Source of the DNA: Bacteroidota bacterium
GTDB lineage: Bacteria > Bacteroidota > Ignavibacteria > UBA10030 > SZUA-254
NCBI GenBank assembly: GCA_049515655.1
Contig: JBEKTW010000012.1
Span: forward strand, 8,904 to 72,903
Length of the DNA: 64,000 nt
Direction of reading: 5' to 3'
A program made the translations under genes and the position numbers. Below the pieces are notes generated by a model. It searched no databases and was not told the origin of the DNA. It worked only from the letters and a program-made list of their open reading frames with translations. Positions 15,177 through 64,000 of the stretch are shown one piece after another. The number at the start of each line of letters is the position of its first letter. Positions within the stretch are counted from its first letter, which is position 1.

Positions 15177-16214
15177 ATGAAAAATAAAGAGAATGTACTT
15201 GTCATCTTCTTTATTGGAATCGCATTTTCAGTGTGGGGTTGTTCCGGTAATTCAGGCAATCAAAATAATGCGACTATTAATGTACAGATCGAAAAAGTAA
15301 AACCCACCGACGCAAGTCAAGAGCTTGCTTACAGCGGCACCATAGAAGAATCCGAAACGATTCCGCTTAGTTTTTCTTCGGCAGGAACTGTATCGAAAGT
15401 ATATGTGTCCGAAGGAGTGTTTGTGAAGAAAGGGCAATTGCTTGCAACGCTGGATGATACAACGCACCAAAATGCCTATGCGATAGCGCAAGCGGCCGAG
15501 CAACAGGCAGAAGATGCCTACAAACGTTTAACACCGATGCATAAAAATGGCAATCTGCCGGATGTAAAATATGTAGAAGTGGAAACCGGTTTGCAGAAAG
15601 CAACGGCGGCGGCAGCAATAGCAAAAAAGAATTTGGACGCCTGCAATTTATGTGCAACAACTGAGGGCTATATCGGCAAACGATCAATAGAGCTCGGAAT
15701 GACCGCTACGCCGAACCTTGCCGCGATCACGATTGTGAAAATCAACAAAGTGCTTGCGCGTGTATCGGTTTCAGAAAACGAAATTGCTCTTATTCACAAA
15801 GGACAAAAGGCAAATATCACAATTGGCGCATTGAGGTCCGCGCACTATGACGGTGTGGTGGAAGAAATCGGTGTGGTTGCGGACCCAATAGTGCATACCT
15901 ATAAGATTAAGATCGGAATAACAAACAAGGATTTGTCCATAAAGCCGGGAATGATCTGTTCTGCAACCATTGAGAGCCCAAGCACAGTGCATGGTATGGT
16001 TGTTCCGAGCAGATCCGTTATGGTAGATGAGTTAGGAAAGAATTTTGTGTATGTCGTTTCATCACAGAATAAAGCAATGCGTAAATATGTTGTAACCGGT
16101 CAGTTGCTGAACGACGGTATTGAAGTGCTGGAAGGATTACAAATAAACGATGCGGTCGTTGTGGCAGGCCAGCATAAACTGATAGATAATGCATCTGTAC
16201 AAATTGAAAATTAA
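15177..16214 (+). CDS. RND efflux membrane-fusion protein (periplasmic adaptor, HlyD/AcrA family)
   Basis: Lipoprotein signal (FSVWGCSG). Coiled-coil/lipoyl and beta-barrel pattern (VSEGVFVKKGQLLATLD ... IKPGMICSATI). Sits directly upstream of the AcrB-like gene. Confidence 0.85.
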   Translation: MKNKENVLVIFFIGIAFSVWGCSGNSGNQNNATINVQIEKVKPTDASQELAYSGTIEESETIPLSFSSAGTVSKVYVSEGVFVKKGQLLATLDDTTHQNAYAIAQAAEQQAEDAYKRLTPMHKNGNLPDVKYVEVETGLQKATAAAAIAKKNLDACNLCATTEGYIGKRSIELGMTATPNLAAITIVKINKVLARVSVSENEIALIHKGQKANITIGALRSAHYDGVVEEIGVVADPIVHTYKIKIGITNKDLSIKPGMICSATIESPSTVHGMVVPSRSVMVDELGKNFVYVVSSQNKAMRKYVVTGQLLNDGIEVLEGLQINDAVVVAGQHKLIDNASVQIEN

Positions 16215-19200
16215 TGGCAAGCAGAGAGTACATAAGTATGAGAAAGAATGTGACATTGCTCGGAATGCTTCTGCGATACAAGCAGGTGATCTATATTTTC
16301 ACTGTCATTGCTATTCTTGTAGGAGTAGTGGCTCTCTTCCAGATGCCGCGCGATGAATATCCGACATTTACAGTACCAACAGGTCTTATCGTTGGTGTGT
16401 TCCCTGGCGCCTCTTCTCATCAGGTGGAAGAACAATTGACAACGAAAGCGGAGAATTATCTGTTCCAGTATAAGTCGGTTGACCGCGCCAAGACCTATTC
16501 CGTCTCCAAAGAGAACGTCATGCTCATCTACGTTCAGGTCTCAGATGCTGAAAAGGATAAGGATGGATTTTGGTTGAAATTGCGTCATGGCTTAAATGAT
16601 TTGAAACCAGAACTGCCCGCCGGAGTGACTTCTTTGACAGCGGATAACGATTTCGGCAGTACATCCGCCATGCTGCTCGCCGTTCAATCTGAAACGAAGA
16701 CATATAAAGAGCTTGAGAATTATATCAAGTCATTCGAGGATGATGTTCGTAAAGTGCCGTCCGTCTCCAAAGTGAAACATTACGGTTTGCAGAAAGAACA
16801 AATCAGCATTTACATGGATGATGCCAGGCTTGCTAATTATGGCATAAAACCAATCCAGGTTCTTGCCGCTCTTAAGCCGCAAAGCACGGTGAACTATGTG
16901 GGGGAGATAAATGATGGCAAATCTGTTCATCCGATCCATATTTCCTCAAACCTTAAAACCGAACAGGATGTAGCCAGCCAAATTGTTTATTCCGATCCGC
17001 CTGGCAATGTTGTACGCGTTAAAGATATAGCAAAAGTTGTGCGCGAATACGACGATATGGATTCTTATATCCGGGTTAATGGAAAGAAGTGCCTGCTTGT
17101 CTCGCTGGAAATGAAATCAGGGGAGAATGTTGTCCATTTTGGCGATGCAGTACAAAAGGCCATCGACAAGTTCTCTGTCATGCTCCCGCCTGATGTAAAG
17201 ATCATCACTATTTCCAATATCCCCGATGTAGTGAAGAAAGCTATTGCAAATTTTCTCAAAGAATTTGCCGTTGCAATGATAGCGGTAATAATGGTTACTA
17301 TCCTTCTGCTTCCGGTGAGAGTTGCTCGAATTGCAGCAATGGCAATTCCAACTTCAATTTTAACGGCTATCGGAATCATGTGGGCAAGCGGAATGGAGCT
17401 GCAGACTGTTTCGCTTGCAGGTTTAATTATTGTCCTTGGTATAACTGTGGATGATGCTATCGTTATAGTCGATAATTATGTAGAGAAGCTGGATCAGGAT
17501 ATGACCCCGTTTGATGCAGGAACAAAAAGCGTGACTCAACTATTCAGCTCAGTGCTTTCCGCTACGCTTATCATCATAGCGTGTTTTATGCCGATGCCGT
17601 TATTTATGACCGGTCAAGGTGCCGAGTTTCTCCAGTCACTTCCGATGACCATTACGTATGCACTGCTCGTTTCATTGCTGCTTTCAGTCTCTGTAATACC
17701 GTTATTAAGCTACACATTCATTAAAACAGGTTTAAAAGACAATTCATCAAAAAAGGGGAAAACGACATTCCTCGATAAACTTCAAAAATTCTATAACGGA
17801 GTCCTGGAGGAAGCATTCAGATGGAAAAAAACGGTTGTCCTTGTAGGTTGTCTTTCGTTCATCGCAGGAATTGTATTGATTGCGATTACTCCGCAGCAGT
17901 CATTCCCAAAACTTGAAAGGAACCAGTTTGCAGTGGAAGTATTTCTGCCCACCGGAAGTTCCCTGCAGAAAACGGATTCGGTAATGACAGATCTTGAAGC
18001 AATACTCCAAAAAGACCCCCGCGTTCGGGATGTGACGTCATTTATTGGAACGAGCTCGCCTCGTTTTAATGCTCTCTATGCGCCCAATTTTCCTGCAAAG
18101 AATTATGGCCAAATGGTTGTAGTAACGGAATCAAACAAGGCTACTGTTGAGATTCTTGACGAGTACAGCAAGAAATTGGAAGGCAAGTATCCCCTCGCCA
18201 ATATAAAATGGAAGCAATTGGCGTTCGAAATATTCAAGGCTCCGATCGAGATCCGTATTTCGGGAGATAGCATCCAGACCATCAAACAGACGGCAAATCG
18301 TGTCTCTGATATTTTACGCCAATTCAAGGATGTCGAATTCATACGCACCGATTATGAACAGCCGCTGCAATTCGCCGATCTGGTCGTAAAGAGAGATGAA
18401 GCAGCCCGGCTTGGTTATTCGAATACGCTTTTGGCTTATTCGTTGATGGTTGGGACCAAAGGATTCCCGGTCTCGACCGTATGGGAAGGAGATTATCCCG
18501 TTGATGTGAAGTTGAAGATCAATAAAAAGACCAAATCCAGTCCCAGCGATATCATGAATCAATACGTGACTTCTCCGTTCATGGTTTCTTCTGTTCCGGT
18601 TCGTCAGTTGGCAACGATAAAGCCAGGTTGGACAGAAGGAGAAATCGTGCGGCGCAACGGGATACGCACCGTAACTGTTTTTGCAGAAATAAAAAGAGGA
18701 TTACTTCCTGCACCGATATTCAATAGAATCAGACCTCTTGTCGATAAAATGGATCTGCCTTCCAGCGTCTTCATAGAATACGGCGGCGACTATCAAATGA
18801 GCGATGAGAATATTACACCGTTCTACTATTCACTGCTTGTTTCCGTTACTATAATTTTCCTCATTTTGATGTTTCAGTACAAAAACATCAAAACGTCGCT
18901 TTTGATCATGGTGACGCTTCCGTTAAGTGTGTTCGGCGCCGCGTTTGGAGTGTTTGTAACAGGATATCCATTCGGAACAACGGCCTTCATCGGATTGATT
19001 GGTTTATTTGGAATCGTCGTCCGTAATGGTGTAATATTTGTCTCGTATGCAGAGGAACTTCGTCATGAACACGGACTCACGCCGGGAAAAGCAGCAATCT
19101 TGGCAGGTAGGAGAAGAATGCGTCCCATATTTCTTACGTCAGCCGCTGCCGCAGTTGGCGTTATCCCAATGATTGCAAGCCGTTCATCACTTTGGGGACC

Positions 19201-19327
19201 GCTTGGTACGGTCCTTTGTTTCGGTCTGCTCTTCGCACTTGTGTTGTCACTGCTGGTTCTCCCGGTGCTCTATTATTACTTCCATCGAAATGATTTTGAC
19301 AAAGTTGAAGAAGGTGAGACATTATGA
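16214..19327 (+). CDS. RND family efflux transporter (AcrB/HAE1-like inner-membrane pump)
   Basis: 1037 aa with 12 predicted TM segments and two large periplasmic loops. Typical RND motifs (GLIIVLGITVDDAIVIVDN..., LIGLFGIVVRNGVIFVSY). The ATG overlaps the stop of the membrane-fusion gene. Confidence 0.9.
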   Translation: MASREYISMRKNVTLLGMLLRYKQVIYIFTVIAILVGVVALFQMPRDEYPTFTVPTGLIVGVFPGASSHQVEEQLTTKAENYLFQYKSVDRAKTYSVSKENVMLIYVQVSDAEKDKDGFWLKLRHGLNDLKPELPAGVTSLTADNDFGSTSAMLLAVQSETKTYKELENYIKSFEDDVRKVPSVSKVKHYGLQKEQISIYMDDARLANYGIKPIQVLAALKPQSTVNYVGEINDGKSVHPIHISSNLKTEQDVASQIVYSDPPGNVVRVKDIAKVVREYDDMDSYIRVNGKKCLLVSLEMKSGENVVHFGDAVQKAIDKFSVMLPPDVKIITISNIPDVVKKAIANFLKEFAVAMIAVIMVTILLLPVRVARIAAMAIPTSILTAIGIMWASGMELQTVSLAGLIIVLGITVDDAIVIVDNYVEKLDQDMTPFDAGTKSVTQLFSSVLSATLIIIACFMPMPLFMTGQGAEFLQSLPMTITYALLVSLLLSVSVIPLLSYTFIKTGLKDNSSKKGKTTFLDKLQKFYNGVLEEAFRWKKTVVLVGCLSFIAGIVLIAITPQQSFPKLERNQFAVEVFLPTGSSLQKTDSVMTDLEAILQKDPRVRDVTSFIGTSSPRFNALYAPNFPAKNYGQMVVVTESNKATVEILDEYSKKLEGKYPLANIKWKQLAFEIFKAPIEIRISGDSIQTIKQTANRVSDILRQFKDVEFIRTDYEQPLQFADLVVKRDEAARLGYSNTLLAYSLMVGTKGFPVSTVWEGDYPVDVKLKINKKTKSSPSDIMNQYVTSPFMVSSVPVRQLATIKPGWTEGEIVRRNGIRTVTVFAEIKRGLLPAPIFNRIRPLVDKMDLPSSVFIEYGGDYQMSDENITPFYYSLLVSVTIIFLILMFQYKNIKTSLLIMVTLPLSVFGAAFGVFVTGYPFGTTAFIGLIGLFGIVVRNGVIFVSYAEELRHEHGLTPGKAAILAGRRRMRPIFLTSAAAAVGVIPMIASRSSLWGPLGTVLCFGLLFALVLSLLVLPVLYYYFHRNDFDKVEEGETL

Positions 19328-20664
19328 AAAAGTACATTGTAATTTGTTTTCTCTTGGTTGTCACACTTCCTGTCTGTGCACAGCAGGTGCTGACATTGGA
19401 TGAAAGTAAACAACTTGCGCTGCAAAATAACGCCAGGATAAAAAATTCTTCTTTGGAAATTGAAGCATCCCGGCAAACGCGGAAAGCGGCGGTGACAAAA
19501 TATTTTCCGTCGATTAGCGCAAGCGGGGCCATGTTTGAATCGCAGAAGGACCTGATGGAAATATCTACAAATGGTGGTAATCTTCCTGTTTATGACGGGA
19601 ATCCGGCGCACCTCTCAGCTGCGACAGAGTATGCGTATATGCCTGCATCAACAATGGGTTTGTTGAAATCCGGCACATTCGGCATGCTCACTGCCGTGCA
19701 GCCGATCTTTGCCGGAGGCAGGATATGGAACGGCAATCGCCTGGCGTCGCTGGGCGAAGATGTGAGCGAATACAAGAATCGGCTTTCTCAGAACGATGTA
19801 CTTCTGAAAACTGAAGAGCAATACTGGTTGGTTGTTTCTCTGAATGAAAAATTCAAGACCATCCAGCGGTACGAAGAGCTACTCAACAGTTTGCTGGCGC
19901 AGGTGGAAGATGCCTACCGGTCAGGCATAGTGATGAAGAACGATGTGCTCAAAGTAAGAGTGAAGCGAAGCGAGGTTTTGCTCAACAAATCAAAATTAGA
20001 AAACGGGCGAAAGCTGGCTACGATGGCATTTTGCCAGTATATCGGAATACCATACGATTCGACGCTGGCGCTCAGAGATTCCTTGTCGCTCGAAGGTTCT
20101 CCGGAATCGTATTATGTGGAACATACTGAAGCGCTGAAGAACAGATCGGAGTATCAATTGCTCCAGGCATCTGTAACATCAGAAGAATTGCAGAGCAAGA
20201 TGAAGCTCGGAGAATATCTTCCCCAGATCGGCGTAGGTGTCACAGGACTGTACATGAAATTGGATGAAAGCCAGGACAGAACGCTGGGAATGGTCTTTGG
20301 AACGGTTTCCATTCCGATATCCGGCTGGTGGGAAGCCTCGCATGTACTGGAAGAACGAAGTATAAAAGAACAGATTGCGGAAAACAACATGAAGGACAAC
20401 TCCGAACTGCTCTTGCTTCAAATGCAAAAAGCGTGGCAGGATTTCACTGATGCATACAAACAGGTACTGCTAAGTGAAGAAGCACAAACACAGGCAGAGG
20501 AAAATCTGAAAGTCAATCGAGACGGTTATGATAACGGCATGATCTCGGTTGCCGATTTGTTGGAAGCGCAGGCGCTGGAACAACAATCACAAGATGGGTT
20601 AATCGATGCGAAAGCAAATTACGTTACGAAAAAGACAACGTATCTGCAGGTCACGGGCAGATGA
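19324..20664 (+). CDS. TolC-like outer-membrane efflux protein (OMF)
   Basis: Signal peptide. Two coiled-coil repeat halves with outer-membrane-factor signatures (LTLDESKQLALQNNARIK; LLEAQALEQQSQDGLIDAKANY). 4-bp overlap with the RND gene. Confidence 0.85.
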   Translation: MKKYIVICFLLVVTLPVCAQQVLTLDESKQLALQNNARIKNSSLEIEASRQTRKAAVTKYFPSISASGAMFESQKDLMEISTNGGNLPVYDGNPAHLSAATEYAYMPASTMGLLKSGTFGMLTAVQPIFAGGRIWNGNRLASLGEDVSEYKNRLSQNDVLLKTEEQYWLVVSLNEKFKTIQRYEELLNSLLAQVEDAYRSGIVMKNDVLKVRVKRSEVLLNKSKLENGRKLATMAFCQYIGIPYDSTLALRDSLSLEGSPESYYVEHTEALKNRSEYQLLQASVTSEELQSKMKLGEYLPQIGVGVTGLYMKLDESQDRTLGMVFGTVSIPISGWWEASHVLEERSIKEQIAENNMKDNSELLLLQMQKAWQDFTDAYKQVLLSEEAQTQAEENLKVNRDGYDNGMISVADLLEAQALEQQSQDGLIDAKANYVTKKTTYLQVTGR

Positions 20665-20735
20665 CTGATAATCGGCATCGAACCGACAAAATGAAGAAAC
20701 ATGAAAGAAAGACTCGAGAAAAAGCGGAGACAAGT

Positions 20736-21593
20736 ATGAGACCGCTGTTTCTGAGTATTTGCAGCCTGATCATTCTATGTGTGCAAACTGCGGGCTCTTC
20801 TGTCATTCTTACCGATGTGCAAACCATAACGGGGGATTCCGATGACTGTCAGCGCACAATGATATGCCCGGGCGAAGAACTGATATACGAGGTAAGTTGG
20901 TTTGGGGTCGGATTGGGGCAGATCCGGCTTCAGACCCGGGAACCAACGTGGAATGATGGAGAACGGCGCCACCATGCCACAGCGGTCATAGATTCTTACA
21001 AGGGTCTGCCGTTTGTCAGTGTGCATGCCCGGGATTACACGGAGATGGATTCGAACTTTAGTTCCCGTCGGTGTCGGTCGTTTGAAAAAAATGATGGATA
21101 CTGGCTTGGTGAGAATTATTACTACCTCATCCCTGAAAAGATCCTCGTTGTCGAAAAAACCAAACATGAAACTCTCTCTTCTCCTCCTGCAGAACGAGCG
21201 ACATATGATACGTTGCGAATCACCGACTCGTGGTTTGAGGATGGGCTTTCGCTTGTCTACTTCGCCCGTGCGAATGTCCATCGTCGAGATACTCTCCGTG
21301 CACCGACGATCGTCTACGGGAAAGTGGGCGCGACAAACTTCTACTTCACTGCTCAGAACACAACCGAAGAGATTGGCGCTCTCAAGAATCCCGTAAGAGT
21401 TATCGAGTTTGCCGGTAAAGCGGAGTTTGCCGGGATCTTCGGTCTCACCGGTGATTTCAAGGGTTGGTTCAGCGACGATGAAGCAGCGGCGCCAATCAAA
21501 GCAGAGATGAAAGTGCTCATTGGAAACATAACAATCGAGTTGATACAGTGGAAACGTCATAACTGGAATCCACCTACAGTGCTCGAACGGTAA
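20736..21593 (+). CDS. secreted hypothetical protein, DUF3108-like
   Basis: Signal peptide from the internal ATG (MRPLFLSICSLIILCVQTAG). GEELIYEVSWFGVGLGQIRLQT is reminiscent of DUF3108. The track's N-terminal extension (start 20661) was rejected. Confidence 0.45.
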   Translation: MRPLFLSICSLIILCVQTAGSSVILTDVQTITGDSDDCQRTMICPGEELIYEVSWFGVGLGQIRLQTREPTWNDGERRHHATAVIDSYKGLPFVSVHARDYTEMDSNFSSRRCRSFEKNDGYWLGENYYYLIPEKILVVEKTKHETLSSPPAERATYDTLRITDSWFEDGLSLVYFARANVHRRDTLRAPTIVYGKVGATNFYFTAQNTTEEIGALKNPVRVIEFAGKAEFAGIFGLTGDFKGWFSDDEAAAPIKAEMKVLIGNITIELIQWKRHNWNPPTVLER

Positions 21594-21626
21594 CTGCAGT
21601 CTCCTCATGAGACGAAGTATCTGTGT

Positions 21627-22541
21627 ATGTCAGCGATAGAATCAACGCTTAAATCTCGCGAAACGGAAGAGACGCTCGATATCTATTTTTATCGTCCGTG
21701 CGGCTACGTTGTTGCTCTCGCAGCCCGATGGATTGGCTTGACTCCGAACATGCTGACCGTACTTGGTGCGCTGATCGGGATAACTGCCGGACACCTTTTC
21801 TTCTATAACGATCTGACTATCAATCTTGTCGGAATTGGTCTGTTGCTCTTTGCGGAGACGATAGACAGTGCGGATGGACAGCTGGCAAGAATGACACAGA
21901 ACTTGTCGAAGCAGGGACGAATTCTTGATGGTCTCGCCGACAGTCTAAAATTCATCAGCATCTATTTACACATCTGTGCGCGTATTGTTGTGGCAACACA
22001 ATGGTGGTGGATTATTCTGATTGCTGTCCTTGCCGGAGTGAGCCATTCATTTCAAAGCGCGATTGCAGATTATTATCGAACGGCATATCTCTATTTCGTT
22101 GTGAATCCAGCGCATAACGATCACGAAAGCTCTCACAGCATTCTACAAATGTACAATACTCTTTCATGGAAAAAAGAACTCTGGACGAAGCTCTGCACGC
22201 GCTTGTATCTCAACTATACGGTTCAACAGGAATCGCTGACCCGGAGTTTTCGTGCATTGGAAGAAAAAACTGCACAACAGTTCGGCAACGATATTCCGGC
22301 GTGGTTTCGAGAAGCATTCCGGAGGAAAAATAGACCGATGATCAAATATTACAACATCTTGACGACGAATACCCGGATGATAGTGTTGATTCTCGGCATA
22401 TTTATCGATCTGCCGTGGATCTATTTTGCATTTGAATTGATCGTGCTGAATTTGCTGTTGGCTGCCGTGCTGTTCTATCAAAATATCATCAACATGTCGT
22501 TGCTAACGCTGGTGCAGACGGAACATGGAGAAACCGAATGA
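21627..22541 (+). CDS. CDP-alcohol phosphatidyltransferase family membrane protein
   Basis: Signature D-G-x2-A-R-x8-G-x3-D-x3-D is present as DSADGQLARMTQNLSKQGRILDGLADSL. Multiple TM helices. Confidence 0.7.
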   Translation: MSAIESTLKSRETEETLDIYFYRPCGYVVALAARWIGLTPNMLTVLGALIGITAGHLFFYNDLTINLVGIGLLLFAETIDSADGQLARMTQNLSKQGRILDGLADSLKFISIYLHICARIVVATQWWWIILIAVLAGVSHSFQSAIADYYRTAYLYFVVNPAHNDHESSHSILQMYNTLSWKKELWTKLCTRLYLNYTVQQESLTRSFRALEEKTAQQFGNDIPAWFREAFRRKNRPMIKYYNILTTNTRMIVLILGIFIDLPWIYFAFELIVLNLLLAAVLFYQNIINMSLLTLVQTEHGETE

Positions 22542-22607
22542 AGCATCAGGATAATAACATGTCGAGTCACACTGCTGGCATTTAGGAACTGATGGGACCC
22601 AGCCTAG

Positions 22608-22838
22608 GGAACACCTGATGCTGGTGGGCAGCGGTTCCGCCAAAGGAGAATTCACTGCTCTGAGGCAAAGGAGAAATTCTACGTGAACATAGATCGTAGG
22701 GCAAATACCTCGGCAGCATCGATTCCTATTGCCATGGTTGATGCCCGGAACGAAGGCAGACTCAAGAACGGGGATATAGTTGTACTGGCAGGTTTTGGCG
22801 CTGGATTAACATGGGGCGGTGTCGCAATGAAGTTTTGA
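22608..22838 (+). pseudogene. fabH: 3'-terminal remnant of fabH (3-oxoacyl-ACP synthase III); the 5' part is absent
   Basis: Translates to ...FYVNIDRRANTSAASIPIAMVDARNEGRLKNGDIVVLAGFGAGLTWGGVAMKF*. This matches the conserved FabH C-terminus (..DRYGNTSAASIPLAL..G.IK.GD..LL.AFGGG.TWG), with YG degraded to RA. An in-frame stop lies at 22605 immediately upstream, and nothing encodes the N-terminal 270 aa. Confidence 0.55.
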
Positions 22839-23034
22839 CTAATGTTCAGATCCCATTGATAACGAAGCCAACCTTTGCCTCGTATATTAGGCCATCCCGT
22901 CTTTGAGACCCTCGTGCGTGCGCTTGTCCCCTCCCAAGTGCAAGCATAACTCAGACCCCTGTTAGCGGCATAAGTTGGACGGTTTGTTCGTTTGGATCAG
23001 ATTAGCATCGAAACCGGCTGCATCACCCCTCCGG

Positions 23035-23120
23035 CGCCCCTACCACCTACGACCTATCACCTGTAACCTACTACCCACACCCTATCACCCACAACCTACC
23101 TCCTGCCACCACTTCGCCGG
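23035..23120. repeat. strand-asymmetric C/A/T-rich degenerate tandem repeat (CCTAYCACC-like units)
   Basis: The stretch cctaccacctacgacctatcacctgtaacctactacccacaccctatcacccacaacctacctcctgccacc has almost no G on the top strand, so the complement is G-run rich. Confidence 0.4.
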
Positions 23121-23178
23121 GAACATTCCCTCCTTTCGAAGAGTAAAAGGAGTAAGCAAGTGACATTATGCAAAGGAT

Positions 23179-23325
23179 GTTCGATGTCCAAAATCCGAAG
23201 CACAAAATTCGAAATCATAAACAAAACCTAAGCTCGAAACCCTAAATTCAAAAAAGGCGGAATTGGGTATTTGGACATTCGGATTTAGGATTTGTTTAGA
23301 GTTTAGTTATTCGGATTTCGGATTT
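23179..23325. repeat. A-tract-phased repeat element (modules X and Y, AAATCCGAA / TTCGGATTT motifs), copy A
   Basis: Module X at 23179-23250 (gttcgatgtccaaaatccgaagcacaaaattcgaaatc...). Inverted module Y at 23277-23325 (attcggatttaggatttgtttagag...). X is homologous to the reverse complement of 31253-31327. Confidence 0.5.
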
Positions 23326-23428
23326 ACTTAAGTTTCACGTATTCGTATGTGGAATTTTTCACTAAAAACTATACCTCTGCGTAAGATCACTAAATGACTT
23401 TCATTCACTCTATCGAAAGGGTCCCGCG

Positions 23429-24775
23429 ATGAAATACTACCCGTTGTACGTACTGGTTGCAGCGTGCCTGTTTCTTTTCAACGAAACGGGCAGGGCAATG
23501 TCGTTTCCCCCAGGCGGTGTCATCACGCTCAACGGAACATTGAATACGGGCTGCATTCCCCATAACGGCGGAACAGTCTACCTGCAGATTGAGCTCGATG
23601 CCCGAAACTTTCCGATGACTGCCGTTTGCCGCCACCCGATGAATATTGCCGTCGTTCTTGACCGCAGCGGTTCCATGGCGGATGCGCGGAAGATCGACTA
23701 TGCGAAAAAAGCGATCAATTCCCTTGTCGACGGTCTCTCGAGTGAAGATTACCTCTCGATCGTCATTTATGACGACCGGATCGATGTTCTTCTGCCGGCG
23801 CAGAGAGTTGTGAACAAGGAACGGATTAAGCGCATGGTCCGGGAAATCTATCCCCGCGGCTCGACGAATCTGGGCGGAGGAATGGTGGAAGGATTCCAAC
23901 AGATCGAAAGGAACTTCAGGAATGATTTCGTCAACCGGGTCATCCTGCTTTCTGACGGCCTCGCCAACACCGGCATCACCGACCCGCGGGAGCTCGACCG
24001 CATCGCCAGGACGTATCGCGATAGATCAATATCCCTGACCACGATGGGTGTCGGGTTGGAGTACAACGAAAATCTCATGCTCGGTCTCGCCGAGAACGGG
24101 GGCGGCAACTACTACTTCCTCGAGAGCCCGCACCAGATGGCGTCGATCTTCGAGCGCGAGCTCAACGGCATCGCCCTCGTCGTCGCGCAGAACGCGCACA
24201 TCGAGCTCACTCTCGCCGACCGTGTGACGTTGAATGATGCGGTCGGATGTGAATGGACCCATGAAGGGAATTCATGGATTCTTCCGGTCGGAGATCTCTA
24301 CGCGAACGCCCGCCGCGAGTTCACCGTCGAGTTGAGCTTACCTGAAGGAAGCGGGACGCGCCGTATCACAACCGGTGTCCTGAGGTACAGGGAGAAGAAC
24401 GGGTGGTTTGAGAACTATCCCCGGTTCTCCGTGGATATCCGTTACACTGACAACGCAGCGGAGCTCGAGAAGGGCAAGAACTGGGACACTCAGGCAAAGG
24501 TTGATGTGGCTCTTTCGACGCGCACGGTTGAGCGGGCGATGCAGGCACTCGACACGGGCCGCCGTGACGAGGCCTGCAAACAGTTGGAGGATGCGAAGGC
24601 GAAGCTGCTCTCCTCCCCCGCCATGCTGAACAGCGCCGCGGGTGCGCCGGCGATGAACGATCAAATCAAGCAGCTCGAGGAATATTCCCGGGATATCACA
24701 AGCGCCGCAGGCGACCTTCGCCGGGCCAAGAAGTCCATCCAGTACAACAACCACAAAATGCAGAAAAGCAAGTGA
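23429..24775 (+). CDS. secreted von Willebrand factor A (VWA) domain protein
   Basis: Signal peptide. MIDAS motif DRSGSM...S...T with a VWA fold (IAVVLDRSGSMADARKIDYAKKAI..LSDGLANTG). C-terminal coiled-coil region. Confidence 0.85.
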   Translation: MKYYPLYVLVAACLFLFNETGRAMSFPPGGVITLNGTLNTGCIPHNGGTVYLQIELDARNFPMTAVCRHPMNIAVVLDRSGSMADARKIDYAKKAINSLVDGLSSEDYLSIVIYDDRIDVLLPAQRVVNKERIKRMVREIYPRGSTNLGGGMVEGFQQIERNFRNDFVNRVILLSDGLANTGITDPRELDRIARTYRDRSISLTTMGVGLEYNENLMLGLAENGGGNYYFLESPHQMASIFERELNGIALVVAQNAHIELTLADRVTLNDAVGCEWTHEGNSWILPVGDLYANARREFTVELSLPEGSGTRRITTGVLRYREKNGWFENYPRFSVDIRYTDNAAELEKGKNWDTQAKVDVALSTRTVERAMQALDTGRRDEACKQLEDAKAKLLSSPAMLNSAAGAPAMNDQIKQLEEYSRDITSAAGDLRRAKKSIQYNNHKMQKSK

Positions 24776-56930: not shown

Positions 56931-58079
56931 TTATTGAACCGTAAAAGGAATCGATGCCTCTGTCTTTTCCCATTTGAGGCTGAGAGTTCCGTGGGAGCCA
57001 TCGGCAGTTATGCTGATCGTGAACCGCTCTGTGAAATCGTCAACATGTTTTACGTCGAGCGGAAGTCGTGCAAGGTCCTTCGACTGGTCGTAATCTGTTC
57101 CCCACTGACCGTGCTGATGATTGATGATCAGTTTCCAGCCGTCCTGTGAGGGGAGCACGAACAACGAATAGGTTCCGGCAGGTACCACGGTTGTACCAAA
57201 CGCCAGGTCTTTGCCGATGATGAGCTGGGTTGCGGCATTCGCACCGGTACGCCAGACGACATTCCACGGAACCACCTGACCGAAAATCGTACGTCCCCGC
57301 GCGGAAGGACGTCCGTAGTCGACAATAACGCTGGCTCCGTTGACCATAGCCCGCGTGGAATCTCTTGGAGAGAGAGGTCCGAGGGCACCTCCGGAACGCT
57401 CACGATCGGCGAAAGTCTTCGCGACCTCTTTGACATCAATATTGGCGGCACGCGTGGCAACGAATTTGTCCGTCGTTTCCGTCATATCGAATTTTTCAAG
57501 GAGGGCGTCCTTTCCGACGACGGCATGGAGCGGACCGAAGTCTCCGCCCGGGTTCAGAAGTTCCACCTTGCCCGGGAAACTTCCTTGAATGTCATAGTGC
57601 ATAACCTGCCTGCCGCCGAGTATTCCGAATCCCTTTTTCTTATCCATCATCAATGCATGCTGGATGGCGGCCTGCCAGCCGCCGAAAATATCGCCAAAGA
57701 ACGGAAAAGGACGGTCGGATGCAGCGACGGCGTATTTTGTCGTGACGGTGTCCTGTCTTGACACGATGTGAACGCTGTCATTTCCATACGTATAATCGCG
57801 TTCCGAAAAAATGGGATTGCCATAGCGTTGGGATGCCACATGAAAGCGCATGAGGCCGCCATCGGGTCCAAAAGTCCCCGAGTACTCGCGAATGGTGGTC
57901 TTCGGTGCGCGTACGACACTCGTCCCGTGCAACCCCCCACCATCCATAAAGAATTCTTCAACGGCGATCGTGTCCCGGCCAAGTGTGACCACGAAAAAAC
58001 CGTGCTGTTTCGGCTGTCCGATTGCAGCAATGGTCGAGAAGCCGGCAACGACTGCGAACAAGATGAATAAACGATTCAT
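56931..58079 (-). CDS. secreted protein with C-terminal DUF2911-like domain
   Basis: Signal peptide from the internal ATG (MNRLFILFAVVAGFSTIAAIG). C-terminal VVPWNVVWRTGANAATQLIIGKDLAFGTTVVPAGTYSLFVLPSQDGWKLIINHQ resembles DUF2911. Confidence 0.55.
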   Translation of the reverse strand: MNRLFILFAVVAGFSTIAAIGQPKQHGFFVVTLGRDTIAVEEFFMDGGGLHGTSVVRAPKTTIREYSGTFGPDGGLMRFHVASQRYGNPIFSERDYTYGNDSVHIVSRQDTVTTKYAVAASDRPFPFFGDIFGGWQAAIQHALMMDKKKGFGILGGRQVMHYDIQGSFPGKVELLNPGGDFGPLHAVVGKDALLEKFDMTETTDKFVATRAANIDVKEVAKTFADRERSGGALGPLSPRDSTRAMVNGASVIVDYGRPSARGRTIFGQVVPWNVVWRTGANAATQLIIGKDLAFGTTVVPAGTYSLFVLPSQDGWKLIINHQHGQWGTDYDQSKDLARLPLDVKHVDDFTERFTISITADGSHGTLSLKWEKTEASIPFTVQ

Positions 58080-58398
58080 ACTATTACCTTTCTTAAGGAT
58101 GCAAGAATGATTTAGGACATAATATATCGATAATTTGGTCAAAATGTAACACCTGGAGCGCTCGAAAAGATTCCGGCATTCCCCTCCCGGTTCCGGCAGG
58201 GTTTCGGAGGAATCTGGCCCTTCGGGGAAGAATGGCAAATTGATTCTTGCAGCATTTTCACCTTGTAAGGAAGGAGATTTTTTGTTACATTTGTATCGCA
58301 TCGAGATCACCGATCGAGATCTCGATCTGCTGTAGTAATATGGAGGGCTTCTCGTGGGGGTTTTGCTACCCGGAGGTCCTCAAACCACGGAGAAGATA

Positions 58399-58436
58399 GC
58401 CCGGATGGCGGAATTGGCAGACGCGCTAGATTCAGG
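58399..58436 (+). pseudogene. tRNA-Leu(CAG)-like 5' half (acceptor stem, D-arm, anticodon stem-loop) lacking a 3' half
   Basis: GCCCGGA-UG-GCGG-AAUUGGCAGA-CGC-G-CUAGA-UUCAGGG matches E. coli tRNA-Leu(CAG) up to about position 38. No complementary anticodon-stem strand, variable arm, T-arm or 3' acceptor (UCCGGGC) follows within 1.7 kb. Confidence 0.45.
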
Positions 58437-58962
58437 GATGAAACCTCCTCCGCGAAAACCTTTCAAGCTAACTCACCTTCCAAGAAGTTTCACGTTCGCA
58501 TCTCCATCCGTTCCTAAAATGGGACTAGCGGACCTGGCATTCGTGTCATGGAATGTGTCCAAATTCGGGAATCCCACTCTAACATATTCGGAGCGACCCG
58601 AATTGTAAAACCAAAACTTGCATTTCACATGCGACATTTCGCGTCCGAGATGAATATTGACGTATTCTTTTACCATTCGTATCGAATCCGCCCTATCATG
58701 AGCAAATGGGTTTCCGCCTACGGTTCCCTTATAGGAATCATCTGCGAGACACCTGAATGAAACAATGAGAATTGAAAATAGAATTCTACTAGTCATTGCA
58801 TCTCCTACAAGAAGTTTCCATCTCAATGATAAATACGAAACTATATTTTGTCTAAATGGATTGATCAGTACTGCTACTCCGGAGGTGTTGGTGGTTTCGG
58901 TTCGATGCTTGCACGTCAGGTTGGGCACCTGGTTAGGTGGCCATCTAAAAGCCATCGTTTGA

Positions 58963-59529
58963 TTACCTACTGACTGATTCATATTCAGATCCGACCATTA
59001 GATCCATTGGATCCATCGAGACCTTGACGCAAAGGATTTGGAATATCGCCTTAGCATCCTCGAGGTAAATTTTCGCATTCCGGAAGTTTATCTCCTTTTC
59101 CCAATTGGTCATAGGCATTTGGGGGCACTCACCTTCTCGAAGAAACTGAGTACTCTCTGCTGTCATAGATTCCGTTTTGCCATGAGCAAGCGCATCGCGG
59201 AGTCGAAACATACGCTTAAAAGTTTGAAACGGTCTTTTACTAAAATCAATCTTTAGGCCAAATAGGTTGGCTAATAAGTCGAGCTTATCTGGAGGAGACA
59301 ATTTACGTTCAACGGAAGACCAAAACGTAGTTCTATTGGCTCCGACGTGATTGAGAAAAGCCTCGACAGTAAATGCAGAGAAGACCATGGAAGCGGAGAG
59401 CATGAGAGTGCTACCCGCATCTGTCTCCTTAGCTCGTTCATAACATTCGTAACTGACGGTTCGTAAGCGCGCGAAAGTATATACCGTCCTACGTGCACTC
59501 GTATGAACGCGTCTTTTATTAGTTTTCAT
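58963..59529 (-). CDS. hypothetical protein in an AT-rich islet, possible HEPN-like (R-x4-H) nuclease
   Basis: Internal ATG gives MKTNKRRVHTS...FKRMFRLRDALAHGKTES..., which contains an R-x4-H-G motif. AT-rich promoter-like sequence upstream. Function speculative. Confidence 0.35.
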   Translation of the reverse strand: MKTNKRRVHTSARRTVYTFARLRTVSYECYERAKETDAGSTLMLSASMVFSAFTVEAFLNHVGANRTTFWSSVERKLSPPDKLDLLANLFGLKIDFSKRPFQTFKRMFRLRDALAHGKTESMTAESTQFLREGECPQMPMTNWEKEINFRNAKIYLEDAKAIFQILCVKVSMDPMDLMVGSEYESVSR

Positions 59530-59648
59530 TATTGATACTTGATTACGTAAAATAATGGTTGTGGCCGCCGAACGAACCGGAGCTATGCTGCAACGAATTT
59601 GCCGACAGATATTTCCGTCTCGCTTGCGCCGCTGGTTTGGCAGCCCCA

Positions 59649-59981
59649 TTATTTATATAATGAAATATTCCATGGTGATTTATAATCTGTTCGCGTTGCC
59701 TTCCACCCACGTTTTAATTGCCCAAGTTGGATTATACTACTATCGAAAGCAACAAGATCTCTCAAACTCGATTCGACCGCTAGATCGATCCCTAACATCT
59801 CATTGGATAGAAATTGCCAATCTCCTTCTTGATCATGAAGTACGAAAAGAATAGGTCTTTTTTTATCGATAACTGATTGTTGTGTCACAACTATTGTTGA
59901 TGGCGGATCTTGGAATGACCATTCTGAAGTACTGGCACAACCAATGAGCAATGTTATCAAGAGTAACAGTCGTCGTTTCAT
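59649..59981 (-). CDS. small lipoprotein, immunity-protein-like
   Basis: Lipobox LLITLLIGCAS. The ILFVLHDQEGDWQFLSNE motif is reminiscent of DUF2185/Imm-type immunity proteins. About 43% GC. Confidence 0.45.
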   Translation of the reverse strand: MKRRLLLLITLLIGCASTSEWSFQDPPSTIVVTQQSVIDKKRPILFVLHDQEGDWQFLSNEMLGIDLAVESSLRDLVAFDSSIIQLGQLKRGWKATRTDYKSPWNISLYK

Positions 59982-60149
59982 TCGTTCTCCATTCTAAGCT
60001 TACTTAATGGACCGGAGCTAAGCTGCGATAACGGCCCATAGCGGTGACAACTGATTCGGCATCATAGATCGCTTGATGCATCGGGAGTTCTTTTTGCTCC
60101 TGACTTTTTCCTTTTTAAAGTGGTTAGGCAGCAGTGCCCGCGTCTTTCT

Positions 60150-60956
60150 CTAAGGTACAAGAAAACTGACGGTATTGCTCGGTATTGTTCCTATGTTTGG
60201 ATAGATTGTTTTTCCCGTAGCTGGGTCGGAATAACCTGTATCGAGAAAGTTGGTTCCATCATCGAAGTAAGTGCTGTTCGCGGAAGCATAAGCTATCAAG
60301 TATACGGTCGACCCACTGGAAATTCCGGCGCGATTAAATGTGCTGGAAGTAATGCTCGTTGAAATCGCAGTGGTTGATGTACCGGAACTCAAATAGGAAA
60401 AAAGAAACGTCGTAGGGTTAGAGGAGACCGAACTGCTCGTTCCAATGAAGAAGCGCACGTAATGGACATAACCTGCAGAAGGAGCTGAAGAAATTGAGCC
60501 AGAGATTGTTACGCTGCTTGTTGTGGGAGTTGCGACGAGACTGGATACTGTGAACGCCGGAATTGCCATTAAGAATTGACTGCGCCCATAAAACAGATCC
60601 CCGCCGCCAGTAAATCCCAATCCGATTCGTTTGTAAACCCCAAAGCCAGTTTTTGAGAAAGTGAGTGTGTAAGATCCAGTTGCGAGTTCCGTGATTGTCC
60701 ATTTCCCGCTAATGTCGCTCGTTGTTGCTTTGTCCGAGTTCTCCACGGTAATCGTAACAGTAGAATTGTCAGGTAACTTACGACCGTAATCGTCATACAG
60801 TGTAACATAGCCGATAAGATTGCCCGTCAACTTCGGACCAGCCGGACCCGTATCTCCCTTGAATTTGTCGCAAGAAGAAGAGCAAATAGAGAAAAACAAT
60901 AATACTAGCGACATCGCCGCTGGTGTGCCGAGCAGTCGTTGAACTGTGTGTTTCAT
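60150..60956 (-). CDS. Ser/Thr-rich lipoprotein with a short collagen-like G-x-y stretch
   Basis: Start at internal ATG (MKHTVQRLLGTPAAMSLVLLFFSICSSSC). GDTGPAGPK triplets. Long S/T-rich low-complexity regions. Confidence 0.5.
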   Translation of the reverse strand: MKHTVQRLLGTPAAMSLVLLFFSICSSSCDKFKGDTGPAGPKLTGNLIGYVTLYDDYGRKLPDNSTVTITVENSDKATTSDISGKWTITELATGSYTLTFSKTGFGVYKRIGLGFTGGGDLFYGRSQFLMAIPAFTVSSLVATPTTSSVTISGSISSAPSAGYVHYVRFFIGTSSSVSSNPTTFLFSYLSSGTSTTAISTSITSSTFNRAGISSGSTVYLIAYASANSTYFDDGTNFLDTGYSDPATGKTIYPNIGTIPSNTVSFLVP

Positions 60957-61075
60957 AGGAACCTTCCTTTCTTTGTGGAATGCGATGATCAAGGCACTGC
61001 TGCCTAACGGATGGCGGCTCAACTGCCCTACTGCGCATGCCCTATAGCATGTCGCTGTGTTGGGATGTGCTGCAC

Positions 61076-62923
61076 TCACTTCAATAGCAACATTTTCTTA
61101 ATGTCTGTGAACTTCCCTGCCTGCAATCTGTAGAAATATATCCCGGATGGAACATTCGATGCGTCCCAGGTTACTGATTTGAAACCGGGCTCTAGCACAC
61201 CATTCACTAGCGTCGCAACTTGCTGACCAAGTAGATTGTAGATATTAAGAGTCACGGCACTCGTTGTCGACAACTGGTAACGAATCGTAGTCGAAGGGTT
61301 AAATGGCTCAGGATAGTTCTGTTCAAGCGAAAAGACTTTCGGCAGGTTGGCTGCCACCTTTTCATCGGGCGCAGGAGGCGGCATTTCGCTGGTAGACAAT
61401 ATCTTTATTCGATTCGTCTTCAGCATTAATGTGGATGACAAAGAGAGTATCAGTCTACCACTTTGATTAACTTTGACCCAATATCCTTTGCCTGGCTGGA
61501 TCGTGTCAACAGAATGGTATCCAGAACTGTAACCGAAGAACTCTGACGTGATCAATCCACTAGGGCTGCTGGCGATATTTGCAACTCGCATAGGAGAACC
61601 GATTGAACCAACTAAATTCCATCCGGTAACCACGGAGATTGACTCGCTCTCGGCAGGTAACCCCGGCGGAAAGGTCACGGTTTGTGGTGCACCGAACTTC
61701 AACCAATATCCGATACCGCCAGATAACGTATCCTTCGCCGCATAGCCATTGCTATACTCGTAAGCCTTTCCGACCGATGAAGGGAAAACAATATTCGCGC
61801 GATAGTCTCGCAGCGACTCAGGAACAGACACAAGGTTCCAACGAGTTTGGTAGGATGTAGAAAGAGGTTTCTGACCATAAATATAAATACCTGACGCACT
61901 GCGGTCCGAATTTACACCGATGTACACTCTGTCGTACATCGTATCGATAACAATCGAAGTTACCATACCTGAATCCGGCAAGCCATTGCTGAAATCATCC
62001 CAATGGGCAGCACCATCAGTGGTGCGAAAGAGCATCTTGCTTCCAACGGTATAGTTCGAGGTGCCAAGAAACATCTCATCGGGATTTCTTGGATTCATTG
62101 CAAATGCCCAAACATCCAGATTTCCCGGCCCGAGACCGTTGTTCATCGAAACCCATGTTTCTCCACCATCAGTCGATCCTGTCACGCCGCAGCCGGCAGA
62201 AGCCATGTATACATGACCACTATTCCTTGGGTCCACAAAAATTGTGCCGCCCCATCCCTGACATTCTGAAGGTTGTCGAGTCCACGTCGTTCCCAAGTCT
62301 GTACTCTTGAAAATCAATCCATTTGAGTCCGCAATTCCAAAGAGGAAGCTCCCCTGTGCCGCATACAAAATACTATCATCACTCGGGAAAATGGTCATAG
62401 ACATTATGCCGATATCAAAGGTTTGTGTCCAGTGGAGTCCTCGATCTATTGTCCGATATAGTAAAGGCCATACCTCCATGTAAACGACGCTCGTGTTTTT
62501 CGGATCTATTTCAATTGACACCCCGGATGCGTATCCTTCCCAGGAGAACAGGGTCTGCCAGCTTTGCCCTCCGTCTGTCGTCATCAACGATGTGTTACAG
62601 GGAGGGTCGCAAGTGGGGTCAGTTGTTTTTACGTATAGGATTTTGGAGTTCCCAGGATCAATCTTGAAATTCGTGACAAGGACGGATCCGAAGACTGACA
62701 CATTGGACCAGCTTTCGCCCCAGTTCGTGCTCAAAAGAAACATCGATTGACCAGATTCGGCATCCTCGCAACTGGCGAACAGCGTATCAGGATGTTTGCG
62801 ATATACATCCATTGGCCACGGCCAGACGCCTTCTGTCCCCCCTGCCCGTCTCCAAGACTGTTCCTGCGAGATAGCCATGCTGCAAACGAGCAATAAAGTC
62901 CAAAGTATTAGCAAGCGTTTCAT
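61076..62923 (-). CDS. BNR/Asp-box repeat protein with T9SS C-terminal sorting domain
   Basis: Signal peptide. Asp-boxes (TTDGGQSW, STDLGTTW, STDGGETW, TTDGAAHW). C-terminus FSLEQNYPEPFNPSTTIRYQ...GIYFYRLQAGKFTDIKKMLLLK. Confidence 0.8.
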   Translation of the reverse strand: MKRLLILWTLLLVCSMAISQEQSWRRAGGTEGVWPWPMDVYRKHPDTLFASCEDAESGQSMFLLSTNWGESWSNVSVFGSVLVTNFKIDPGNSKILYVKTTDPTCDPPCNTSLMTTDGGQSWQTLFSWEGYASGVSIEIDPKNTSVVYMEVWPLLYRTIDRGLHWTQTFDIGIMSMTIFPSDDSILYAAQGSFLFGIADSNGLIFKSTDLGTTWTRQPSECQGWGGTIFVDPRNSGHVYMASAGCGVTGSTDGGETWVSMNNGLGPGNLDVWAFAMNPRNPDEMFLGTSNYTVGSKMLFRTTDGAAHWDDFSNGLPDSGMVTSIVIDTMYDRVYIGVNSDRSASGIYIYGQKPLSTSYQTRWNLVSVPESLRDYRANIVFPSSVGKAYEYSNGYAAKDTLSGGIGYWLKFGAPQTVTFPPGLPAESESISVVTGWNLVGSIGSPMRVANIASSPSGLITSEFFGYSSGYHSVDTIQPGKGYWVKVNQSGRLILSLSSTLMLKTNRIKILSTSEMPPPAPDEKVAANLPKVFSLEQNYPEPFNPSTTIRYQLSTTSAVTLNIYNLLGQQVATLVNGVLEPGFKSVTWDASNVPSGIYFYRLQAGKFTDIKKMLLLK

Positions 62924-62953
62924 TGCATCATCTATTCTCCGTGCTGTGGATGA

Positions 62954-63880
62954 TCACTTCAGAAGCACCATCTTCTTAATATCCGTGAATCGGCGTCCTG
63001 AGCTTGCCGAAGGATTGCCTGCCTGCAATCTGTAGAAGTAAACTCCACTCGGTAGATCACTCGCGTCGACTATTCGAGAGTAATTTCCTGGTTCTTGCTC
63101 TCCGTTTACGAGAGTTCGCACTTCCCTTCCCAGCAGATCGCACAGCTTCAAGGTAACGAATGACTTTTGTGGAAGAGAGTATGAGATTGTGGATGTTGGA
63201 TTAAATGGGTTGGGGTAGTTTTGAGCGATTGAAAACTTTTCAGGCATCATGAATCGATTTTGTTCAACACCAACTATCCCATAGCTCACGCCGTTGATCC
63301 TCGCTCCCCTCAGTTGATAGTTGAATGCCTCGAGTGAGCCATACCCAATCATTCCAATACTGTCTGCAAATGCTACGGTTGTGAACCAGTTGTGGATGTT
63401 TGTAAATGTGCAACAAATACGGCTTCTCGAATACAAGGTGTCCTCCATACACCCATCGTGTATCCATTCCCCGGCAGTATCTCCGGGCGAAGATGCAAAA
63501 TCAAAAATAGCGTTCTCCATCCGGCTGGATGTATCATAACCCAGGAATTGTCCATGCTCTTCTCGAAAATACCCGCAGGAAAAGAACGGAAACACGTCAG
63601 CACAATTTGACGAGAACACAGAATAGGTCTTACCATTCGCCATCGTAGTATCCCGAAGGATTTCGACCTGGAGAATAATGTCCGGGCGCATGTATTCTAC
63701 GTACTGCCAAAGATTCCCGGGTTGAAAAGGATATTCAAGAACCTGTGAATTCGAAGTTCCTTGACCAATGAGCCAGCAAGCGAGCACTCCGAAGATAAAC
63801 CTCAGAACCCCTCCTCCCACACCAATTGGAATCGTCCCTGCAACTGCCCATTGCAGCGCAAGTATCATCAACCGCTTCAT
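62954..63880 (-). CDS. secreted protein with T9SS C-terminal sorting domain
   Basis: Signal peptide/TM. C-terminus FSIAQNYPNPFNPTSTISYS...GVYFYRLQAGNPSASSGRRFTDIKKMVLLK. Confidence 0.75.
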   Translation of the reverse strand: MKRLMILALQWAVAGTIPIGVGGGVLRFIFGVLACWLIGQGTSNSQVLEYPFQPGNLWQYVEYMRPDIILQVEILRDTTMANGKTYSVFSSNCADVFPFFSCGYFREEHGQFLGYDTSSRMENAIFDFASSPGDTAGEWIHDGCMEDTLYSRSRICCTFTNIHNWFTTVAFADSIGMIGYGSLEAFNYQLRGARINGVSYGIVGVEQNRFMMPEKFSIAQNYPNPFNPTSTISYSLPQKSFVTLKLCDLLGREVRTLVNGEQEPGNYSRIVDASDLPSGVYFYRLQAGNPSASSGRRFTDIKKMVLLK

Positions 63881-64000
63881 CTCTTTGCCAAGGTTGTGAA
63901 CGCCCCGATCGAAAAAGCCATAAGACTACCGCGACCTCTAGTTGAACGACAAAACCCGCCGTGCCATATACTTCAGCACAAGCGGGTTCTTTTTCGAACT

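Follow-up and report, generated by a model that had tools for sequence, protein, structure and literature searches.

The stretch of DNA analysed here (64,000 nucleotides (nt) of contig JBEKTW010000012.1 from a Bacteroidota bacterium; hereafter the window) holds a GC-poor islet of small minus-strand genes beside a fragment of a tRNA-Leu(CAG) gene. The islet contains genes for a solo HEPN-fold protein and an exported lipoprotein and an orphan open reading frame (ORF), orf3; a gene for a CarboxypepD_reg-like protein follows on the same strand (Table 1). The original prediction described an AT-rich islet of about 43% GC with three minus-strand ORFs and proposed that it might be a toxin/immunity or abortive-infection (Abi) module. 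The composition and the ORFs are as described: GC is 0.397–0.447 in 300-nt windows over 58500–59999, and the 2-kb bin 58001–60000 has a GC of 0.442 compared with 0.54–0.56 over 50–58 kb. The high-GC gene said to come next on the right is not there, as the GC of 60000–64000 is only 0.45–0.50, so that the low-GC tract is open beyond 59990.

We conclude that 58438–61069 is probably the distal end of an integron cassette array that is decaying and that has joined the core genome where tRNA-Leu(CAG) is broken. The array would comprise four same-strand cassettes, carrying the CarboxypepD_reg-like gene, the Imm33-like lipoprotein gene, the solo HEPN gene and the orphan ORF, with attC-type sites between them. 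Fusion would have occurred within the anticodon loop of the tRNA and, with no integrase within the window, the array would resemble a cluster of attC sites lacking integron integrases (CALIN).

orf3 is the least secure of these genes and may not be a real one. Its longer reading (58473–58982, minus strand, 169 amino acids) had already been doubted, and rightly: the first 62 codons overlap the attC remnant attC_d, and therefore only the 107-residue form from the ATG at 58796 is plausible. orf3 has no homologue besides itself among 5.8 billion proteins and no match in Pfam, PADLOC, NCBIfam or PHROG. A DUF4424-like N terminus was considered and rejected, as Pfam gave it no support.

Table 1. Features of the islet and its borders (window coordinates).
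Feature	Position	Strand	Remarks
tRNA-Leu(CAG) 5' half	58399..58437	+	Acceptor stem to end of anticodon loop; 3' half missing
orf3, orphan ORF, 107 amino acids	58473..58796	-	Signal-like N terminus MTSRILFSILIVSF; last, possibly truncated cassette
attC_d, HEPN cassette	58850..58942	-	R'' ACCTAAC, L'' module retained, R' decayed to TTTAGAC
Solo HEPN-fold protein, 188 amino acids	58963..59529	-	Motif R111-D-A-L-A-H116; E56/N60/H61 conserved in helix 1
attC_c, lipoprotein cassette	59563..59645	-	R'' GCCAAAC, R' GTTCGGC; best R1 match in window, E 3e-4 (3e-5 with filters off)
Exported lipoprotein, 110 amino acids	59649..59981	-	Distant Imm33/DUF2185-like domain, residues about 18–107
attC_b, upstream cassette	60002..60133	-	R'' GCCTAAC and L' kept, L'' lost, R' decayed to ATTAAGT
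CarboxypepD_reg-like cassette ORF	60150..60956	-	Signal peptide; Pfam CarboxypepD_reg E 1e-6, below cutoff
attC_a	60998..61069	-	Short, canonical R' GTTAGGC; R1 E 0.019 (0.002 with filters off)

attC-type sites and cassette boundaries

In two other contigs with a homologue of the lipoprotein gene, L008 and L011, this gene is bracketed by long direct repeats of 150–250 nt. The repeats start ...GCCTAACCAG-GCGCTCAAGCTGAC and finish CAGCTTAGCGCC-CATCC-GTTAGGC. Eleven copies fold with a 6-bp R''/R' stem (CCTAAC with GTTAGG) and a 15-bp L''/L' stem that has two extrahelical bases; the spacer is asymmetric and the loop variable, and compensatory changes are seen at seven of the pairs. A covariance model, R1, seeded with these 11 repeats from the arrays around the lipoprotein homologues, finds seven sites in L008 and nine in L011 at E<=1e-15, one after each small same-strand ORF. 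The arrays of these relatives thus display every feature expected of attC: RYYYAAC/GTTRRRY ends, L stems, extrahelical bases and loop. An earlier detector, based on a generic R''/R' regular expression and folding, called 33 sites in real loci and 27 in shuffled ones and, being non-discriminating, was replaced.

Across the whole window R1 returns two sites only, attC_c and attC_a, both within the array and both on the gene strand. Several pairs of attC_c are broken, and the HEPN cassette begins at its G|TT. attC_a is the first recognisable attC-type site and lies just past the stop codon of a 615-residue type IX secretion system (T9SS)-type gene; that gene was considered as a further cassette and rejected, as it has no start complementary to the attC_a R'' flank. 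With R1, attC_b is seen at its R'' end only (60095–60133), weakly (7 bits, E 0.33), and its 3' module has six mismatches to the consensus. A 16-mer, ACCGGAGCTAWGCTGC, occurs only in attC_b and attC_c, flanking the lipoprotein gene (0.02 expected). attC_d scores below threshold with R1; it lies right after the HEPN stop codon, and its 5' module, CCTAACCAGGTGCCCAACCTGAC, has three mismatches to the attC consensus and is unique in the window (0.00 expected by chance). The window has a second low-GC tract, at 14001–24000 (GC 0.43–0.48), in which R1 finds no attC site of the islet family.

The boundaries of the cassettes are revealed by comparison with other arrays. HEPN genes 85–89% identical to that of the window (present in databases as 146-residue products whose called start is internal) are found in two further arrays with the same attC family, and R1 sites flank the HEPN gene in L084–L087. 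Homology among the HEPN cassettes of the window, L084 and L085 sets in exactly at G|TTAGGC (GTTCGGC in the window), and the sequences upstream of this point are unrelated. Neighbours of the HEPN gene are a 348-residue protein and a classical PF05168 HEPN protein in L084, and a 201-residue protein and LysE in L085–L087. In each cassette, the start covaries with the R'' flank of the attC site that belongs to it (GGCGGCCAC / GTGGCCACC in the window; GGCGGGCAC / GTGCCCGTC in L085); for attC_d, 10 of 13 positions of the flank are complementary to the start of the HEPN cassette. This boundary, together with the covarying flank, is the footprint of IntI-type recombination. In the same array of L084 (L084:855-1679), a 274-residue PF05168 (also DUF4145) protein is encoded two cassettes upstream of the islet-type HEPN cassette, so that one short array carries two unrelated HEPN cassettes.

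The same complementarity is found for the other genes. The start of the CarboxypepD_reg cassette, GTTAGGCAGCAGTGCC (61008–60993), is complementary at 16 of 16 positions to its own R'' flank, GGCACTGCTGCCTAAC (60138–60123), and because this perfect 16-nt inverted repeat brackets the gene, it too is a cassette. For the lipoprotein homologues, which are flanked by intact attC sites in L008 and L011, cassette start and end are complementary at 13/13 and 12/12 positions, respectively. Applied to 54 HEPN-family loci with a threshold of >=10/13 (mismatched-pair controls, 0.7%), the test was passed by six, compared with about 0.4 expected: Chloroflexia L012 (13/13), L085, Candidatus Onstottus L016, Lysobacterales L025, Lampropedia L051 and the window. 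The HEPN family is thus found in integrons time and again, but integrons are not its main setting. Taken together, the attC family is real, the cassette boundaries lie at G|TT, and the HEPN and lipoprotein cassettes occur independently of each other in other arrays with other neighbours.

The HEPN gene of L012 lies directly between two sites that belong to a different attC family. L012, a Chloroflexia metagenome-assembled genome, carries a long cassette array (L012:2500-12000) with an attC family of its own, 98–150 nt in length, of the form CTAACCCCCGCTCC...CCGGCTGCAGGTGAGCTCAxCCGTTAGG, with identical 79-nt copies at 8645 and 9299. As to integrases, those of L008 are generic tyrosine recombinases that score far below the IntI cutoff. 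L011 has, divergent from the array, a 125-residue ORF (L011:1882-2259, minus strand), the last 37 residues of which weakly match the N terminus of IntI (TIGR02249, E 6e-4); this ORF may be a truncated intI.

The tRNA-Leu(CAG) junction

The tRNA fragment beside the islet was confirmed by alignment with a relative, L078, which shares about 88–91% nucleotide identity with the window. Positions 58399–58437 are base-for-base equal to the 5' half of the intact 85-nt tRNA-Leu(CAG) of that contig (L078:2277-2361). Synteny with L078, comprising a DUF2911 gene, an amidohydrolase gene and a xanthine-dehydrogenase-like gene, reaches the last base of the anticodon loop (TTCAGGG|, 58437), directly past which the homology ends. 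ARAGORN and Rfam called no tRNA at 58399–58437, and neither the 3' half of the tRNA nor a direct repeat was found above chance within the window. A group-I intron was considered and rejected, as Rfam gave no match. In L078, the intact tRNA is followed by a tyrosine-recombinase C-terminal remnant (E 1.5e-4) and by unrelated genes, which makes tRNA-Leu(CAG) a site of repeated insertion in this lineage. The inference of horizontally acquired DNA adjoining a tRNA remnant holds. Integration of an island at a tRNA normally leaves a 3' tRNA repeat and not a lone 5' half; the arrangement in the window is the opposite of this usual outcome of integrase insertion.

Divergence within the population is uneven across the junction. 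Two contigs of the same population, L001 and L002, were compared over window positions 58251–59949. The HEPN cassette is identical in the two, the lipoprotein cassette differs by 16 single-nucleotide polymorphisms (7 amino acids), and 14 differences are packed into 90 nt at the orf3/tRNA junction. Such a mosaic pattern suggests replacement of segments or of cassettes.

Beyond the array, a 26-nt direct repeat (61113–61138 and 63015–63040) was considered as a regulatory element and rejected, since it is coding sequence for a T9SS C-terminal sorting domain (..IYFYRLQAGK..). The two copies sit in two neighbouring genes for secreted proteins.

The HEPN protein and the lipoprotein

The HEPN ORF extends from its farthest ATG over 58963–59649 (228 amino acids), and full-length homologues support the ATG at 59529 as the true start. 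The protein was called HEPN-like in the original prediction on the strength of an R-x4-H-G motif (FRLRDALAHG). That call is right: the motif is present, and the 188-residue protein has a four-helix up-down HEPN fold with an invariant R-[DN]-x3-H. It has extra N- and C-terminal β-strands and a 25-residue loop after the motif. Among 5.8 billion proteins, 61 homologues were found, all lacking a Pfam domain. When 38 homologues are aligned (with numbering one higher than in the true protein, where the motif residues are R111 and H116), two motifs stand out, FSAFTVEAFLNH and RPFQT..LR[DN]xLAHGKTE; in the second (LR[DN]xLAHGKT), R and H are invariant, R is followed by D or N in all 38, and G and K are nearly invariant. 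Curated profiles of the HEPN clan match the protein below threshold only (HEPN_Cthe2314, E 0.097; PADLOC RTasHEPN, E 0.013), and the family is therefore unclassified. Scattered Pfam matches among the 38 members are to RiboL-PSP (five, best E 0.0018), Cthe2314 (two), HepT (one, weak) and Apea (one). The protein is cytoplasmic, lacking a signal peptide, and has no sequence homology to a named single-gene Abi system (of the AbiV, AbiU2 or Esos type). The ratio of nonsynonymous to synonymous substitution rates (dN/dS) is 0.15 relative to homologues at 89% and 60% identity, indicating purifying selection.

The distribution of the family is patchy, taking in Chloroflexota, Planctomycetota, Acidobacteriota and several proteobacterial classes; the neighbouring genes differ from one case to the next. 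An all-versus-all BLAST of ORFs within 4 kb of the gene, over more than 60 loci, yielded no conserved partner, the largest cluster spanning four loci (a type I methylase). Tallying 233 flanking proteins with Pfam and PADLOC gave a similarly heterogeneous picture, with no recurrent family and with no nucleotidyltransferase family among the 25 most frequent Pfam families. These flanking proteins are housekeeping proteins (including GcvP, FtsK, BipA, RsgA, KsgA and UvrB), some restriction–modification, SspH, SoFic and PD-T4-6 matches, and a few toxin–antitoxin components. In L007 (500-6600), a 57%-identical HEPN homologue lies 34 nt downstream of an AbiGi-family gene and beside a type I restriction–modification system (hsdM, hsdS), DUF4268 and a Trypsin_2 protein; a 58-nt repeat, not attC-like, follows three consecutive genes there. 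Repeats near the HEPN homologues of L014 and L007 were considered as attC sites and rejected as terminator-like hairpins or unrelated repeats. In L004, a tandem array with a 21-nt period and AACGTTTGGAACAATTGTCTG-like units (L004:6833-7021) lies closely downstream of a HEPN homologue with 60% identity. A phage origin of the HEPN family was also considered and rejected, as there was one weak match in 2.9 million viral contigs, no PHROG match and no fold match in BFVD.

The lipoprotein begins MKRRLLLLITLLIGC, a signal peptide with the lipobox LLIGC, and thus carries an export signal; the lipobox is consistently retained in its close subfamily. As originally noted, it contains HDQEGDWQF (residues 49–57), and its dN/dS is 0.11–0.24. 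Close homologues are few (five in a word-index search), and a profile built from the six sequences retrieved 1477 proteins from 1.84 billion representatives, 280 of them at E<=1e-10. The match spans the mature ~90 residues, often constitutes the whole of a cytosolic protein of 95–105 residues and in some cases is fused to other domains. We scanned 64 of the retrieved proteins (profile E 1e-12 to 1e-44) and the lipoprotein itself against Pfam: among these 65, 21 match PF09951 Imm33 (best 7e-6), two match Imm33-like and one matches CdiI_3. The suggested DUF2185/Imm assignment is thus supported indirectly, through the relatives, the lipoprotein itself having no Pfam match at E<=1. From its sequence relationships, it appears to be a distant, exported member of the Imm33/DUF2185 fold.

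The notion that the two genes form a pair, with the lipoprotein serving as the cognate immunity protein or antitoxin of a HEPN toxin in a two-gene toxin/immunity or Abi module, finds no support. In its favour, the two genes are neighbours that share a strand, with 116 nt between them; conflict systems include HEPN toxins as well as Imm-type proteins; and of the two domain calls, HEPN is correct and Imm33-like probably so. However, the genes are separate integron cassettes, each with its own attC, and an attC site lies between them. The original prediction had proposed looking for homologous pairs in other genomes, taking their absence as evidence against it, and none were found: the pair occurs only in this strain's own contigs (L001 and L002), tblastn finds homologues of the lipoprotein in L008–L011 with no HEPN homologue nearby, homologues of the HEPN protein occur in more than 60 loci without the lipoprotein, and in L084 and L085 different genes precede the HEPN cassette. 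The lipoprotein is exported through a lipobox conserved in its subfamily, whereas the HEPN protein lacks a signal peptide. Moreover, Imm33 (PF09951, formerly DUF2185), an immunity domain found in polymorphic toxin systems, has been tied to HNH-type toxins (Tox-HNH, DHNNK) and not to HEPN (PMC3482391), the partners in the literature being HNH and DHNNK nucleases. We consider a cognate pair hardly credible. Nor was there any linkage of the lipoprotein to a polymorphic toxin (HNH, DHNNK) or to polyimmunity loci: the genes around it in the window and in L008, L009 and L011 are housekeeping genes or belong to unrelated cassettes.

Interpretation and comparison with known systems

A decaying cassette array fused to a half tRNA gene accounts best for these data, and several observations weigh against it or against the roles proposed below for its genes. 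All four sites in the window are degraded, the two found by R1 having modest scores (21.9 and 15.1 bits) and broken pairs and the other two being recognised by half-site similarity. The attC sites of the relatives, at 150–205 nt, are longer than most described. No intI, attI or cassette promoter (Pc) was found in the window (using tblastn with a tyrosine recombinase for the integrase), and the 37-position match in L011 is the only intI-like trace. About 89% of HEPN-family loci lack a cassette signature, many of them having housekeeping neighbours; no model in the defence databases matches the HEPN protein above threshold; and the family is nearly absent from the 2.9 million viral contigs searched. 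As for the lipoprotein, its link to Imm33 is only a transitive one, and its AlphaFold2 model, built from six sequences, has a predicted local distance difference test score (pLDDT) of 52 and is unusable. Some of the same features could be read differently, the repeats being palindromes of another kind and the islet a remnant of a tRNA-targeting island brought in by a phage-type integrase: the islet starts at the tRNA-Leu break, L078 has a tyrosine-recombinase remnant beside its intact tRNA, no IntI was found and the repeats are unusually long for attC. Yet the repeats show the full grammar of attC with compensatory changes, one follows each small same-strand ORF, homology starts at G|TT in three arrays and cassette starts complement the R'' flank of their own attC. 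The window, furthermore, has a lone 5' tRNA half and contains none of the hallmarks of a tRNA-integrated island (intact tRNA, 3' direct repeat, adjacent integrase). We therefore regard a phage-type island in place of an array as very unlikely, although the two are not exclusive, in that an array-bearing island could have landed at the tRNA. Because its attC sites are degraded (broken pairs, mutated core sites) and no integrase is in view, the array is probably inert and no longer mobile.

Within the array, the likeliest role of the HEPN cassette would be that of a self-contained, single-gene RNase effector that stays silent or auto-inhibited until triggered; phage infection would be the most plausible trigger, leading to RNA cleavage and growth arrest. 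We infer this role, both phenotype and RNase activity, by analogy, and hold it to be plausible though somewhat short of an even call. AbiV occurs commonly in both chromosomal and mobile integrons, and protection against T4 and T7 is conferred by a cassette with an AbiU2 domain (10.1101/2024.07.02.601719, 10.1101/2024.07.02.601686, 10.64898/2026.03.17.712381). A bolder version, in which the 188-residue protein founds a new HEPN family that is by itself a complete abortive-infection system, sensor and RNase in one, spread by integrons across distant phyla, is doubtful. The cassette of ~720 nt would then have spread among a Fibrobacterota–Chlorobiota–Bacteroidota (FCB)-like host, Chloroflexia, and beta- and gammaproteobacteria, and the paired terminal β-strands and the loop after Rx4H could be a phage-sensing or autoinhibitory element. 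It is unlikely, in our view, that the HEPN-fold protein has no part in conflict, being instead non-toxic, with a role in RNA or nucleotide binding or processing, and present in the cassettes of some lineages only incidentally. The many homologues that lack a cassette signature or have housekeeping neighbours, and the lack of a PADLOC or PHROG match above threshold, would fit such a role; against it, the R-[DN]-x3-H motif, characteristic of HEPN RNases that are catalytic, does not vary, the patchy distribution over distant phyla with changing neighbours is the pattern of a mobile accessory gene, and the gene is found in integron arrays and in a defence island. An addiction toxin that stabilises the array, in the manner of the toxin–antitoxin cassettes of chromosomal integrons, rather than defending against phage, with an antitoxin so far unrecognised (a small RNA, orf3 or a gene elsewhere), is improbable. 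More than 60 loci contain no nucleotidyltransferase (MNT) or other conserved partner, the ~720-nt cassette has no room for a second gene, the H-G-K motif lacks the tyrosine of Rx4HxY, and orf3 is an orphan, absent beside all other HEPN homologues. The lipoprotein, for its part, may be an orphan immunity-type protein acting at the periplasm or outer membrane against an imported toxin, unrelated to the HEPN gene.

Two adjacent small genes of the conflict type are thus best explained as unrelated passengers of an array, which is a warning against annotation by adjacency in cassette arrays. The compact HEPN family, under purifying selection and matched by no Pfam or PADLOC model, is a candidate for defence screens, and five or more lineages beyond the Vibrio and enterobacterial integrons hitherto studied have it as a cassette. 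The locus also documents a long attC family (150–205 nt) in uncultured bacteria and is an example of array decay and chromosomal fixation, through fusion to a half tRNA gene. An apparent lipid-anchored, exported branch of the Imm33 fold suggests immunity against toxins outside the cytoplasm. That integron cassettes carry single-gene HEPN defences is already known, and current understanding is not overturned.

The islet shares with CALIN-like arrays a short run of small same-strand ORFs, attC-type sites, the lack of a nearby intI and a lower GC; it differs in that its sites are partly destroyed, two of the four probably not being callable, and in that the array is cut by the half-tRNA fusion. 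In the HepT family, the motif is Rx4HxY and its tyrosine is AMPylated by MntA. Compared with MntA–HepT (PDB 5yep, 7ae2, 7bxo and 8xdj), the islet HEPN gene has no adjacent nucleotidyltransferase gene in more than 60 loci; its motif, RDALAHGK, lacks the AMPylated tyrosine, and the protein has the extra β-strands and the 25-residue loop. The lipoprotein resembles Imm33 (PF09951) in its mostly β domain of ~90 residues with a conserved D-G-x-W-x-F, and its relatives are also found fused to immunity-type domains such as CdiI_3. It differs in being an exported lipoprotein encoded by an integron cassette with no adjacent toxin gene, whereas the partners of Imm33 are intracellular nucleases. The closest parallels to the HEPN cassette are in other integrons. 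Esos, from the Vibrio cholerae superintegron, has a HEPN-like domain only, and AbiV is common in chromosomal integrons (10.1101/2024.07.02.601686); Esos, AbiV/brcN and the AbiU2-domain cassette of V. mimicus are reported to work through growth arrest or cell death (10.1101/2024.07.02.601686, 10.1101/2024.07.02.601719, 10.64898/2026.03.17.712381). Like the islet gene, these are single small HEPN-only genes borne as integron cassettes, and phage protection has been reported for them. Finally, HepS, a solo HEPN protein of the Gifsy-1 prophage that senses a phage tail-tip protein (PDB 9oik), offers a likeness on another mobile element: a stand-alone HEPN defence that combines sensing and effector functions.

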